Source: Hadesarchaea archaeon (GTDB lineage Archaea; Hadarchaeota; Hadarchaeia; Hadarchaeales; WYZ-LMO6). From it: 20,931 nucleotides of DNA. The translations under genes were made by a program, and so were the position numbers. Position 1 is the stretch's first letter. Each line of letters begins with the position of its first letter. This document shows positions 306 through 17,711 of this stretch, piece after piece. The stretch covers positions 1 to 20,931 of the forward strand of contig JAPDJF010000018.1 of the NCBI GenBank assembly GCA_029259185.1, read 5' to 3'. Below the pieces are notes generated by a model. That model had not been told where the DNA came from. It did not search any database and saw only the letters and a program-made list of their open reading frames with translations.

Positions 306-421
306 TGCCGGGGGCGGGATTCGAACCCGCGATCTCCGGATTTCCCACATCATCTTTCGGTCAGCACTCATAGCCCCCGAGGCTATGAGTCCGGCGCTCT
401 AACCACCTGAGCCACCCCGGC
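306..421 (-). tRNA. tRNA-Met(CAT), elongator type, with 42-nt intron (342-383) at position 37/38
   Basis: Minus strand reads GCCGGGG TG GCTC AGGTGGTTA GAGC G CCGGA CT CAT A [intron] A TCCGG AGATC GCGGG TTCGAAT CCCGC CCCCGGC A. BHB central helix is CUCA/UGGG with bulges UA^G and AA^A. The acceptor stem is not initiator-like or Ile2-like. CCA is not encoded. Confidence 0.95.
342..383 (-). ncRNA. Candidate intron-encoded box C'/D' guide element in pre-tRNA-Met
   Basis: Intron has GGCUAUGAGU-G-CUGA-CCGAAAG-AUGAUGU: a 10-nt antisense to the anticodon/exon-intron junction, then box D' CUGA, then a 6/7 match to box C. Confidence 0.6.
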
Positions 422-8889: not shown

Positions 8890-11124
8890 TTGCCGTACGC
8901 CAGCAAAATAGAACTGCGGGGTTTCAAGTCCTTTAGGGATAAGACTGAGATCCCCCTCTCCCGGGGTTTGACGGTCATAGGGGGCCCCAACGGGTCGGGG
9001 AAGAGCAATATCGTGGATGCTCTCTGTTTCGTCCTCGGGTGGATGAGCGCAAAAACGATGCGCGCTGAGAGGTTCTCTGACCTCATATTCAAGGGAGGTG
9101 ACGGAAGGCGCTCACCCCGCTTCGCAGAAGTTTCGTTGTACTTCAATAACGAGGATGGTGGGATAGAGGTGGATTCCAAGACCGTAGTCATCACGAGAAC
9201 GGTTGACGAGGAGGGAAAGTCGGTTTATAGGTTGAACCGACGGCGCGTGAGCAGACAAGACATAGTGGATCTCCTAGGTAAGAGTCTCAGTCTAGGGGAG
9301 TACAACTTCATCCTTCAAGGAGATGTTGAGCACTTCGTGAGAATGGACTCGATCGACCGGAGGAAAATAATAGATGAACTCGCAGGGATAGCGGAGTACG
9401 ATGTGAAGAAGGAGAAGTCGATGTCGGAGCTCCAGAAGGTGGAAGCGAATCTCCGCTCCATGCAGGTCGTCTTGGAGGAAGTTCGGAGTCAGCTTGAGAA
9501 ATTGGAGGTCGAGAGGGAGAACGCGATCCGATACCGAGAGCTTAAAGATCGGCTAGGCGCTGCTAGGAGAGAGTTGCTCCGGGTGAGGTTTGAGAGGTGT
9601 GCGTCTGAGTTAGAGAGGGTGGAGGAGATGAAGGAGGAGCTCGAGAGGCGGATCGGGGAGGAGATGGAGACCCACCGGAGGCTTGTGGAAGAAGTCTCCT
9701 CGTTCGAGGAGAAGGAGAGACGGTTGAGCGATCTCATCGAGGAGAAGCAGAGTACCGAGACCATGGTCTCGGAGAGAATAAGGCAGAAGCTGGAGACACT
9801 CATTGAGCAGTTGAATTCGCTTGAGGGGGTCAAAGAAGAGCTTAGGGCGGAGATGCGAAGGGTGGAGGGGGAGTTCAAAAGATCGAGCACTTCGGTTCGA
9901 GATCTCATTTCAGAGTTTCAAGGAGCATGTGAGCGGTTCGTCGAGCTTAGCTCCAAGTTCCTCAGACGGAAGCACGAATCACTTGAGGAAGTCCGGGCGG
10001 ATCTAGAAAATTTGAGGAGAGCGGTTTGGGAGATGGAACTGAAAGTGGAGGAATTGAAAGAAAGGCTGGAAGTTTTCGAGATCTCGGAGAAGCTCCCTGC
10101 GGATCCTGCCACTTTGAGGGAGCGATTGATCCACCTTCGGGCTAGGCTCCTTCAGCTCGAGAGCAATGGGAGGGAACTCAGAGAGAGGATATGGCGCACG
10201 AAAGAGGAGCTTCGAAGGGTTTCTTCTAGAGAATCTGAGACGAGGGAAGCGATCAGCAAGATGCGGGAGGAAAGAGAGCGGGTCAGGGGGAAGATAGCTT
10301 CCGTCAAGAGGAGGGCCAACTCGATTGGGGAGAGACTTCGAACCATGGAATCCAAGCTGAGCGAGCTGAGGGTTGAGGAGGCGAAACTGCGGACCAAGTT
10401 AGAGGAGTTGAGAGAATCTCTAGGTGAAACCGGGTTCAAGCGAAGGGGTTCAGGGGAGAGCTTGGGAGAGAAAAAACTTTCCAAGCTGGTGGAGGAGATC
10501 GAGGATGAGCTTCGAGAATTGGAACCGGTGAACATGAGGGCCATCGAGGAATTCCGGAGGGTAGAGGAGAGATATCTCTCCCTCCGAGGCAGGTACGAGA
10601 AACTCCAGCGGGAGAGGGAGCATGTACTCGGTTTCATAGAGGAGATCGAGCGAAAGAAGAAGGATGCGTTCATGAGAACGTTCGAGGAAGTTTCGAGGAA
10701 CTTCGGGGAGATATTCAGGGAGCTCTCTCCCGGGGGGGAGGCTAGACTCGTCTTGGAGTGTGAGTCGAATCCTTTTGAGGGCGGAGTGGAGATAGAAGCC
10801 AGACCGGGAGGCAAGGAGATCCGAAGGGTGGAATCGATGTCAGGGGGGGAGAAGTCGCTCACCGCCCTCGCTTTCATACTGGCCCTTCAGAAGATGAGGT
10901 CAGCCTCGCTCTACGTTTTCGATGAGATAGATGCTCACTTAGACGATGAGAAGGTGCCCAGGGTTGCGAGGCTGATTAAGAAGTATTCTCAGAACTCCCA
11001 AGTGATTGTGGTTACCCTGAAGGACTCTATAATGAGCGTCGCCGATAGGCTCTTCGGGGTGACGATGAAGGACGGTGTTTCCGGGATAGTGTCTCTGGAG
11101 TTAGCGGAGTATGGGGGGGATTGA
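8890..11124 (+). CDS. smc: Smc-family ATPase, unusually short (744 aa), no recognisable hinge
   Basis: Walker A GPNGSGKS, MRAERFSDLIF, Q-loop FILQGDV, EPVNMRAIEE, signature MSGGEKS, Walker B/D-loop VFDEIDAHLD. AGGTGA RBS before the TTG start. Confidence 0.92.
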   Translation: MPYASKIELRGFKSFRDKTEIPLSRGLTVIGGPNGSGKSNIVDALCFVLGWMSAKTMRAERFSDLIFKGGDGRRSPRFAEVSLYFNNEDGGIEVDSKTVVITRTVDEEGKSVYRLNRRRVSRQDIVDLLGKSLSLGEYNFILQGDVEHFVRMDSIDRRKIIDELAGIAEYDVKKEKSMSELQKVEANLRSMQVVLEEVRSQLEKLEVERENAIRYRELKDRLGAARRELLRVRFERCASELERVEEMKEELERRIGEEMETHRRLVEEVSSFEEKERRLSDLIEEKQSTETMVSERIRQKLETLIEQLNSLEGVKEELRAEMRRVEGEFKRSSTSVRDLISEFQGACERFVELSSKFLRRKHESLEEVRADLENLRRAVWEMELKVEELKERLEVFEISEKLPADPATLRERLIHLRARLLQLESNGRELRERIWRTKEELRRVSSRESETREAISKMREERERVRGKIASVKRRANSIGERLRTMESKLSELRVEEAKLRTKLEELRESLGETGFKRRGSGESLGEKKLSKLVEEIEDELRELEPVNMRAIEEFRRVEERYLSLRGRYEKLQREREHVLGFIEEIERKKKDAFMRTFEEVSRNFGEIFRELSPGGEARLVLECESNPFEGGVEIEARPGGKEIRRVESMSGGEKSLTALAFILALQKMRSASLYVFDEIDAHLDDEKVPRVARLIKKYSQNSQVIVVTLKDSIMSVADRLFGVTMKDGVSGIVSLELAEYGGD

Positions 11125-16556: not shown

Positions 16557-17711
16557 TTGAGAACCCAGATCGTAGCCGAGGGCGGGATAAGACTGGAAGT
16601 CCCTGAGCTCGACGGGTTCAGGACCTCCACCGGAGACTTCGCTCCATCCTTGACGCCAGTCTTTTACAACCCCCAGATGGAGGCGTGCAGGGACATATCG
16701 GTTGGTGTTCTCCACGTATTAGCGGGGGAACTCGGGGAGCTGAGAGTGTGTGACCCACTCGGTGGGGCGGGGGTCAGGGGTCTCAGGTACGCCAAGGAAG
16801 TGAAGGAAGCGAGGGAGGTGGTCATCAACGATCTCTCGAAAGAGGCTTTCAAGATGATCGAGAGAAACGTGGCCCTGAATTCCCTGACCAACGTGCTCGT
16901 CAGGAATGAGGATGCGAACGTTTTGCTCAGGAGCGACAGACGCAGGTTTCATGTGGTCGATCTGGATCCCTTTGGTTCTCCTGCCCCTTTCCTAGAGTCT
17001 GCATGTTCGTCGCTTCTCCGGGGTGGGATACTTGCCGTGACCGCCACCGACACCGCCCCCCTTTCCGGAACCTATCCGAAAGCATGCTTGAGGAAGTACG
17101 GTGCGAGGTCCATCAGAACCGAATATGGACACGAGCTGGGAATCAGGATCCTGATAGGTTTTTGTCAGCGGGTGGGAGGAATCCATGAGCTAGCCCTCCT
17201 CCCTATCCTCTCCCACGCCACTAGACATTATTTCAGGATCTATCTCAAGGTTACGAAGGGGTCACGCAGGGTTGATGAAGTGTTGGCCAAACATGGATAC
17301 GTAATGGACTGCTCCTGCGGACGAAGAGTCATCACGCGGGGGATGCGGGATCCCACTTGCAAGTGCGGAAAGGAGTTCAGGGTCGCGGGTCCCCTCTGGC
17401 TAGGAGATTTGGGGGACGCGAAGTTCATCAGGAGGATCATAGATTTCCTGAAGGGCTCGCAGTTTAGGTTAAAGCATGTGGAAATCCGCATGCTGGAATT
17501 GTGTGCAGAGGAGGCGCACGCTCCCCCAACCTTTTACGACTCTCATAAACTCGCTAGGAGGATGAAGACATCACCCCCAAAGATGGAGAGGATCTTGAAG
17601 GAACTTGCGGAGAGGGGCCATTTCGTCTCGAGGACCCATTTCTCGCCGGTAGGGTTCAAGACCGATGCTTCATTCGAAGAGCTCTCATCGATACTCTCGG
17701 GGGGTGGATAA
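16557..17711 (+). CDS. trm1: tRNA (guanine-26-N2)-dimethyltransferase
   Basis: VFYNP, GVRGLRY, DLDPFGSP, TATD, GPLWLG, SRTHF. Confidence 0.96.
   Translation: MRTQIVAEGGIRLEVPELDGFRTSTGDFAPSLTPVFYNPQMEACRDISVGVLHVLAGELGELRVCDPLGGAGVRGLRYAKEVKEAREVVINDLSKEAFKMIERNVALNSLTNVLVRNEDANVLLRSDRRRFHVVDLDPFGSPAPFLESACSSLLRGGILAVTATDTAPLSGTYPKACLRKYGARSIRTEYGHELGIRILIGFCQRVGGIHELALLPILSHATRHYFRIYLKVTKGSRRVDEVLAKHGYVMDCSCGRRVITRGMRDPTCKCGKEFRVAGPLWLGDLGDAKFIRRIIDFLKGSQFRLKHVEIRMLELCAEEAHAPPTFYDSHKLARRMKTSPPKMERILKELAERGHFVSRTHFSPVGFKTDASFEELSSILSGGG

Follow-up and report, generated by a model that had tools for sequence, protein, structure and literature searches.

The intron of a tRNA gene with anticodon CAU, located in the 20,931-nucleotide (nt) stretch of DNA analysed here (contig JAPDJF010000018.1 of the Hadesarchaea archaeon assembly GCA_029259185.1, the whole of which is referred to below as the window), is probably a natural box C/D guide. 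Using a single kink-turn (K-turn) motif, it would direct the wobble cytidine's 2'-O-methylation (Cm34) in the elongator-type tRNA-Met that carries it, acting on the unspliced precursor in a fold that excludes the bulge-helix-bulge (BHB) structure of the exon-intron borders. The case draws on the anatomy of the intron, on its conservation and the compensatory changes between guide and intron across Hadarchaeota, on the invariant register between guide and box, and on the presence of C/D protein genes in the genome to which the window belongs (G000; 1.27 Mb, 94.9% complete).

A putative guide element in the tRNA-Met intron

The gene and the element within it are read on the minus strand, and consist of the following parts.

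306..421, minus strand: tRNA(CAU) gene, elongator type (Rfam RF00005, 62.6 bits, E 1.1e-11; G1-C72, CCGGA/UCCGG anticodon stem, CCA not encoded)
384..421, minus strand: 5' exon, positions 1-37, with anticodon C34, A35 and U36 at 387, 386 and 385 (sequence and Rfam match)
342..383, minus strand: intron at the canonical 37/38 site (sequence and Rfam match, parsed as 42 nt)
306..341, minus strand: 3' exon, positions 38-73 (sequence and Rfam match)
381..390, minus strand: target strand ACUCAUAGCC, made up of A31-A37 plus intron nt 1-3 and crossing the 5' splice site (sequence, fold and homologues)
376..380, minus strand: hairpin loop UCGGG, in which an optional G376:U380 pair leaves a loop of 3 nt (fold; 3-12 nt in homologues with an uninterrupted duplex)
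366..375, minus strand: guide (antisense) GGCUAUGAGU, a perfect 10-nt complement of the target (sequence, alignment and RNAalifold)
365, minus strand: spacer nucleotide (N+1), an unpaired G between guide and box (one nt in all 45 aligned rows)
361..364, minus strand: box D'-type CUGA (invariant in 45 distinct rows, 29 of them found via whole-tRNA or 5'-exon similarity)
354..360, minus strand: D'-C' spacer CCGAAAG (sequence)
352..360, minus strand: predicted K-loop CCGAAAGAU, whose counterpart in DPANN-labelled introns and Nanoarchaeum equitans is a C-stem hairpin plus 3-nt bulge
347..353, minus strand: box C'-type AUGAUGU (AUGAU invariant in 45 of 45 rows)
344..347, minus strand: UGGG, 3' strand of the BHB central helix and partner of C32-A35, sharing U347 with box C' (sequence, alignment and fold)
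341..343, minus strand: AAA, forming the BHB motif's 3' bulge; the 3' splice site falls between 342 and 341 (sequence and alignment)

The gene is absent from default ARAGORN output, and its intron is misplaced once introns are permitted. Because the acceptor stem opens with G1-C72 and the anticodon stem is CCGGA/UCCGG, this CAU tRNA is not an initiator, and we call it an elongator-type tRNA-Met. Two kinds of architecture are superimposed on its intron. The first is that of a BHB intron, with two 3-nt bulges (UA/G and AA/A, the stroke marking the splice site) flanking a helix of 4 base pairs (bp) at the exon-intron borders, formed by CUCA (389..386, C32-A35) and UGGG (347..344). The second is that of a box C/D guide, in which an antisense sequence lies upstream of D', the 10-bp duplex runs from N+2 to N+11 counting upstream from CUGA, and the fifth nucleotide, G369, is paired to C34 (387); downstream is an internal D'-C' motif able to form a K-loop or K-turn, in which GAUG (351..348) could form G.A, A.G, U.U and G-C pairs with CUGA as the non-canonical stem, a geometry that follows the established K-turn consensus. 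Whether computed for the precursor or for anticodon arm and intron alone, the minimum free energy fold is the guide hairpin with 11 pairs, G376:U380 being the pair that could extend the duplex beyond ten. This fold is computed at -21.3 kcal/mol, as against -18.3 for the enforced BHB fold at 37 °C, and at -7.9 against -4.7 at 70 °C. Both folds use C32-A35, and they are therefore mutually exclusive.

The preliminary description of this locus had placed guide, target, CUGA, the 7-nt spacer and AUGAUGU with every coordinate right on a minus-strand reading, and in the window C34 pairs exactly, as it had proposed, with the fifth base upstream of CUGA. Its picture of a 42-nt tRNA-Met intron (383..342) with a duplex running across the splice site into intron nt 1-3 is borne out as well, as is the exclusivity that it had suggested between guide hairpin and BHB helix.

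The arrangement of guide, CUGA and box C' is not a product of chance. When the intron was shuffled by mononucleotide 300,000 times, no product combined a duplex of 8 bp or longer around C34 with CUGA at the N+5 register and UGAUG or GAUGA further downstream; with the duplex minimum relaxed to 7 bp a single shuffle qualified, and with a minimum of 5 bp there were 13. A regular-expression search with RUGAG-NN-CUGA over the whole of G000 gave no other site whose complementarity to the Met anticodon loop extends beyond that pentamer, and no stand-alone guide for this loop turned up in it. Among curated Rfam C/D families none matches the locus; only the tRNA model passes, the best C/D family being sR41 with 8.7 bits and an E value of 9.

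Conservation and covariation across Hadarchaeota

With the whole pre-tRNA as BLAST query, intron-spanning matches came back from 29 of 40 relatives in the same order, four of them partial or cut by a contig end, and a 5'-exon search in 10 of the 11 other relatives added five genes, three bearing the element (G013, G022 and G026) and two, both from family f5, without an intron. Of 66 Hadarchaeota genomes, 53 contain a match to a relaxed motif (CTCATA, gap, TGAG-NN-CTGA, gap, ATGAT), among them 22 of the 26 of high quality; matches to the reversed-pattern control numbered 0. By family, the motif occurs in four of five f1 genomes plus G000, 40 of 46 in f2, the single f3 genome, seven of nine in f4, none of three in f5 and not in the one f6 genome. 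One Hadarchaeota genome, G054, has two differing copies of the element (C1:703-747 and C76:7103-7146), for which gene duplication or a mixed bin is possible.

A stricter pattern, run over one genome per prokaryote species, matched 54 stretches, of which 48 are labelled Hadarchaeota or synonyms and three Micrarchaeota, while one labelled Methanobacteriota has an intron motif identical to that of Hadarchaeota genome G063. Two further matches, in a Burkholderiaceae metagenome-assembled genome and in an uncultured archaeon, lie outside tRNA genes and were taken as chance. The patterns used in this wide scan and in the DPANN survey described below fix the boxes and the register, so that conservation of these features there is by ascertainment; only rows found by tRNA similarity, plus the N. 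equitans RNA, are independent in this respect. All Hadarchaeota copies are related, and counts of conservation among them are not counts of independent events.

Of 84 loci, 75 could be parsed, giving 44 distinct anticodon-arm-plus-intron sequences, and the duplex starting from A31 is exactly 10 bp long in 32 of these, 9 bp in four and 11-12 bp in three, with a single internal mismatch interrupting it in the remaining five. Other parts differ in length between sequences: 3 to 12 nt for the hairpin loop and 37 to 50 nt for the intron as a whole, with the D'-C' spacer variable too. In a MAFFT alignment of 45 distinct Hadarchaeota sequences, to which the following counts refer, 99.1% of cells in the ten duplex pairs are paired, and pairing falls to 34-44% when the partner is slid by 1-3 columns. 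At the three pairs between intron and guide both sides change and no cell is unpaired: intron nt 1 pairs as AU in 20 sequences, GC in 17, GU in 7 and CG in 1; intron nt 2 as CG in 42, UA in 2 and AU in 1; and intron nt 3 as CG in 34, UA in 4 and AU, GC and GU in 1 each, with four gaps. The covariation score was matched by 0 of 500 column shuffles, and since these three positions are N in every search pattern, the covariation is not a matter of ascertainment. The duplex helix, stacked on the anticodon stem, is also recovered de novo by RNAalifold.

No row among the 45 departs from CUGA or from AUGAU, which lie 6-9 nt apart, and the single base before CUGA (G in 41, A in 3, U in 1) is present without a gap in every row. 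Registers shifted by -1 or +1, measured from the antisense pentamer to CUGA, were found in 0 of 66 Hadarchaeota genomes each, Hadarchaeota being the scope of these controls. Frozen spacings of this kind, set against freely varying loops and spacers, match what the C/D ruler predicts.

The central BHB helix, CUCA/UGRG, is paired in 87.8% of cells. The h' helix of the strict hBHBh' motif was rejected as a conserved feature, with 64% of cells paired and one pair unpaired in 42 of 45 rows. A further small helix with moderate support, referred to here as hairpin 2, joins alignment columns 42-47 with 56-60 (window positions 360-357 with 348-344) and has box C' inside its loop; it takes the form YCAC/GUGR in families f2 and f4 and is reduced to CC/GG in the window. 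Hairpin 2 covaries with the choice between UGGG and UGAG for the BHB strand, and at L019-L021, in three genomes, it persists as CUAC/GUAG although this introduces a C34.A mismatch into the BHB helix.

The predicted K-turn and its counterparts in other archaea

CUGA and GAUGAUG are separated by 5-8 nt in Hadarchaeota, within which there is a 2-bp stem at best, and the D'-C' motif is, as judged from these sequences, a K-loop. A 2-bp mini C-stem within this spacer was rejected as a specific feature, at 87% paired against 81-83% in slid controls. A more complete form was found in a survey of 301 genomes sampled from the phylum of one of the Micrarchaeota-labelled matches, nine of which match, eight of them in tRNA(CAU) genes. 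In six of these eight DPANN-labelled introns a hairpin follows directly after CUGA, then exactly 3 nt (GAU, UAU or AAU), then GAU, and the stems differ between lineages in a co-varying manner (GGC/GCC, GACA/UGUC, GACAA/UUGUC, GC/GC and GCCA/UGGC). A canonical K-turn consists of a C-stem, a 3-nt bulge, tandem sheared G.A and A.G pairs, and then U.U. On this layout the DPANN-labelled hairpin, bulge and GAU are a predicted canonical K-turn, which in turn fixes the register in the window as CUGA (364..361) with GAUG (351..348).

A second box D in the DPANN-labelled introns was considered and rejected, as the candidate reads CUGG in three of five and coincides with the BHB strand. Four of these introns (L096, L097, L100 and L101) also have GGCGCUC, or a near variant, downstream of box C', complementary to exon positions 22-28 (GAGCGCC, comprising the 3' strand of the D-stem, position 26 and the start of the anticodon stem), and a second pairing or a misfolding lock is possible there. 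The CUGA or CUGG that comes after it coincides with the BHB strand.

The closest published counterpart is in N. equitans, in which the 66-nt intron of elongator tRNA-Met gives rise to a stable RNA, named as a potential C/D box small RNA (sRNA) and recorded at a coverage of 31,500 (Randau 2012, PMC3491384). The PLEXY target given for it is 'no prediction', and self-targeting is not described in that report's account of this RNA (PMC3491384). Compared by eye, the N. equitans RNA and the element in the window share their location in an elongator tRNA-Met intron and the order of antisense, CUGA, hairpin or spacer, and GAUGA-type box; in both, the antisense to the CAU loop and intron start stops two nt before CUGA, with C34 at N+5. 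After CUGA the N. equitans RNA continues with a G-C hairpin of 3 bp capped by GAAA, followed by a 3-nt bulge and then GAU. It differs from the window in its length (63-66 nt against 42), in an extra G-C hairpin downstream, and in having a true C-stem where the window has a loop. By this comparison, CUGA-CCGAAAG-AUGAUG in the window looks like a decayed copy of the N. equitans element.

Relation to known C/D guides

The precedent for an intron that guides modification of its own host is tRNA-Trp of euryarchaea, in which the intron is a box C/D guide for Cm34 and Um39 (PMC7994747, PMC4033218, PMC7714728, PMC11408192) and works in trans (PMC7994747, PMC11408192). Like the Met intron, it is inserted at 37/38, is aimed at position 34 of the host tRNA and has the precursor as substrate. 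Unlike the Met intron, with one guide and one K-turn motif, it makes up an entire sRNA, about 60-105 nt long, that has two guides and all four boxes (C, D', C' and D). What looks like its homologue is present in G000 itself, in a tRNA-Trp gene (C12:9626-9760) with a 59-nt intron in which a box-C-like GUGAAGA is followed by a 12-nt guide, CUGA, 9 nt and UGAUGA. In this intron, whose layout is the classical one of an intron-borne guide, position 39 lies at N+5 of the D' guide; behind the second guide there is no clean CUGA as box D, which makes the C34 register ambiguous.

The product proposed here is itself known. In haloarchaea a C/D ribonucleoprotein (RNP) with the guide sR-tMet makes the Cm34 of elongator tRNA-Met (PMC4033218, PMC6601510), and in Pyrococcus a C/D guide for position 34 of tRNA-Met is predicted (PMC7994747). 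Both share with the proposed Met intron guide the product Cm34 and the enzyme system, and differ from it as stand-alone genes acting in trans, whereas the Met intron guide sits in the intron of its target. In Haloferax volcanii the pairing of sR-tMet reportedly also uses both exon and intron of the precursor, as Joardar is said to have described in 2011.

The third point of comparison is artificial. Engineered single-site (hemi) C/D complexes remain active, yet show no site specificity at all (Hardin and Batey 2006, PMC1635284); specificity is restored by a second K-turn motif rather than by a second guide, and natural C/D complexes are described there as always pseudo-symmetric (PMC1635284). 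A half-mer C/D RNP crystal structure is also mentioned in the literature (PMC6239191). The engineered complexes, which assemble with L7Ae, Nop5 and fibrillarin and are catalytically active, resemble the Met intron in having a single K-turn closed on the C-stem side and one guide 5' of CUGA. They differ in being artificial and in having lost site specificity, whereas the Met intron would have a substrate tethered by the hairpin loop and a 10-bp duplex stacked on the anticodon stem; tether and fixed stacked duplex might together replace the missing second motif.

C/D-like RNA in an elongator tRNA-Met intron is thus already in print for N. equitans, without a target, in the portion of the report that concerns it (PMC3491384). 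A full-text literature search found no paper assigning guidance of its own C34 to a tRNA-Met intron (Joardar 2011 and Clouet-d'Orval 2001/2005 might bear on the point), and a 2024 review of intron-dependent tRNA modification names the tRNA-Trp intron, in its treatment of the subject, as the sole guide (PMC11408192). What is new here is a putative half-size, self-targeting C/D-type guide with an assigned target, C34.

A proposed mechanism and its difficulties

The protein components that such a guide would call upon are encoded in G000, in which a fibrillarin gene (316 bits) adjoins that for Nop5 (222 bits) and an L7Ae-family protein (100.9 bits) is also present. In the mechanism that we propose, CUGA and GAUGAUG would form a K-loop for L7Ae to bind, and the L7Ae-bound loop would in turn receive Nop5-fibrillarin. 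The 10-bp helix of guide and target, stacked on the anticodon stem, would present the ribose of C34 to fibrillarin, which would 2'-O-methylate the nucleotide paired with the fifth guide position upstream of CUGA. The guide could be the molecule's own intron, in cis, or the intron of another molecule, in trans, and a single Nop5 dimer could serve two half-guides, on the pattern of half-mer crystal structures (PMC6239191). Since the duplex needs intron nt 1-3, only the unspliced precursor would be a full substrate; since it buries C32-A35, the BHB would be blocked while the guide is engaged and would form only after its release, so that methylation should come before splicing.

A more far-reaching version of this proposal, which we put forward tentatively and do not hold to be likely, is that the intron forms a natural hemi C/D RNP that is kept across Hadarchaeota and common to Nanoarchaeota and other DPANN archaea, that acts in cis, that licenses splicing only after C34 has been methylated and the RNP released, and in which the tethered 10-bp duplex is the ruler.

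A number of observations weigh against even the simpler proposal. The terminal box C/D motif is missing: neither RUGAUGA upstream of the guide nor a second CUGA downstream of box C' is found in the window intron or in its Hadarchaeota homologues, and inspection of intron and flanks gave no second K-turn. With one motif, and short of the pseudo-symmetric bipartite architecture, the Met intron is not filed as a standard archaeal box C/D sRNA, and a natural guide with one motif is unexpected given that hemi complexes lose site specificity (PMC1635284). If the Met intron guide is specific, another ruler is needed, and this might be the fixed duplex length of 10 bp, the tethering by the loop or the stacking against the anticodon stem. 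The hairpin loop of only 3 nt in the window and in genus g2 may make a cis duplex hard to load into an RNP. The last position of box C' is U instead of A, and in one lineage (L018) its last G is changed to U. Hairpin 2, which is 83.7% paired with UA in 16 and CG in 13 sequences at one pair, would compete with the K-loop. A tRNA-Ile2(CAU) is a formal alternative to the elongator assignment, and for Hadarchaeota the whole of the evidence is DNA sequence.

Family f5 belongs among these difficulties. Its intron-less tRNA-Met genes, with the same exons, are at G012:C3:41107-41181 (L092) and G015:C4:38427-38501 (L091), so that in this family the intron was apparently lost or never gained. A stand-alone guide was not found in the three f5 genomes with one exact pattern; a weak match at G015:C29 was rejected as such a guide, being without box C and poorly complementary. 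Cm34 may on this showing be dispensable there or made otherwise.

The preliminary description had proposed a minimal self-guide with a single K-loop, and had named loss of the guide/CUGA/UGAUG spacing among relatives as grounds for giving it up. The spacing has proved to be strongly conserved, and the proposal, which came through each computational test applied to it, has gained further from the predicted K-turn of DPANN-labelled introns and from the C/D proteins encoded in G000; the part that sits least well is the single motif, given that hemi complexes are not site-specific (PMC1635284). The newness that it had assumed for C/D-like RNA in a tRNA-Met intron is reduced by the N. equitans case (PMC3491384).

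Alternative explanations

Three other accounts of the intron have to be weighed. The most durable of them, which we consider unlikely, is that the element is a structural or chaperone module built on a K-turn, with no methyl transfer, in which L7Ae, alone or with partners, and the hairpin between anticodon and intron hold the precursor in a splicing-incompetent fold. Its role might be control of folding, protection of the anticodon loop in a thermophile or the timing of splicing, and in that case the N+5 register would be a vestige of descent from a guide. Pairing between anticodon and intron is common in pre-tRNAs, which counts for such a module, as does the guide hairpin itself, the fold of greatest stability and one incompatible with the BHB; the overlap of hairpin 2 and the BHB strand with box C' suggests a conformational switch. 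That there is one K-turn only fits this account too, single-site C/D complexes being poor rulers (PMC1635284). However, it leaves unexplained the one-nt spacing between duplex and CUGA, never found shifted among the 66 genomes, and the 10-bp duplex, along with retention of the register in N. equitans and in DPANN-labelled lineages, all of which the C/D ruler needs.

A second account, which is quite improbable, is that the excised intron, linear or circular, is a C/D-type sRNA that acts in trans with another main target, for example another CAU tRNA or rRNA, or that it methylates several riboses of the anticodon loop imprecisely. The tRNA-Trp intron guide acts in trans (PMC7994747, PMC11408192), the N. 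equitans intron accumulates as a stable RNA (PMC3491384), and the non-specificity of hemi complexes (PMC1635284) would favour imprecise methylation. Against a separate target is the failure of PLEXY to give one for the N. equitans RNA, as tabulated in PMC3491384, and the covariation of the three 5' nucleotides of the guide with the first three nucleotides of the intron itself, which argues that the selected partner is the unspliced pre-tRNA-Met and not mature tRNA or rRNA.

It is highly improbable, finally, that this is an ordinary BHB intron whose anticodon complementarity and box-like words are a lineage accident kept by descent, for although the Hadarchaeota copies are all homologous, so that conservation counts kin, and although the BHB helix is paired in most of them, there are compensatory changes at three pairs without an unpaired cell, the boxes are invariant beside variable loops and spacers, the same architecture recurs with different stems in distant DPANN-labelled lineages and in N. 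equitans, the shuffled introns did not reproduce the arrangement at the 8-bp cut-off, and the h' helix of the strict BHB is poorly supported.

Other tRNA genes and small RNAs of the genome

Introns are present in many G000 tRNA genes when ARAGORN is run with introns allowed, which fits the raised tRNA gene disruption with which Hadesarchaea are associated (PMC5829648). One of these genes is in the window itself, at 1934-2030 on the plus strand, with CCA encoded, a 26-nt insertion in the anticodon loop and an Rfam tRNA match of 46.3 bits; its intron looks non-canonically placed, since ARAGORN gives Arg(CCG) or Gly(CCC) depending on options. Another CAU tRNA reported by ARAGORN at C2:342-450 gave no confident parse, and a regular expression for an initiator-type tRNA recovered none in G000, its single match, on contig C22, not having been looked at for a tRNA fold. 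The window sequence is present in five DNA metagenome runs from two studies, of marine and hydrothermal-vent origin; no RNA run containing it came up, which carries no information on its expression.

Canonical two-motif C/D sRNAs are represented in G000 by at least one sequence, in two copies, by a strict regular expression that undercounts. A near-identical element of about 90 nt, which could represent a small-RNA gene present several times or a portion of some repeat, occurs in three copies at C1:~117520-117650 (minus strand), C9:~10950-11080 (plus strand) and C13:~17160-17290 (plus strand); it contains CUGAUGC, GUGAGGGCUGA and another CUGA, and has no complementarity to the Met anticodon loop.

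Implications

The prevailing view of natural C/D guides is that they are always bipartite, with the second motif giving site specificity. If the intron of tRNA-Met is the guide proposed here, a conserved, one-motif guide tethered to its substrate would be a natural counter-example to this view and a minimal model system. A function and a target would be provided for the abundant tRNA-Met intron RNA of N. equitans, an organism that can be grown in co-culture and in which the mapping of Cm34 is thus feasible. tRNA-Met would become the second tRNA, after tRNA-Trp, whose intron guides modification of its host, and its precursor would offer a testable case in archaea of modification gating splicing.

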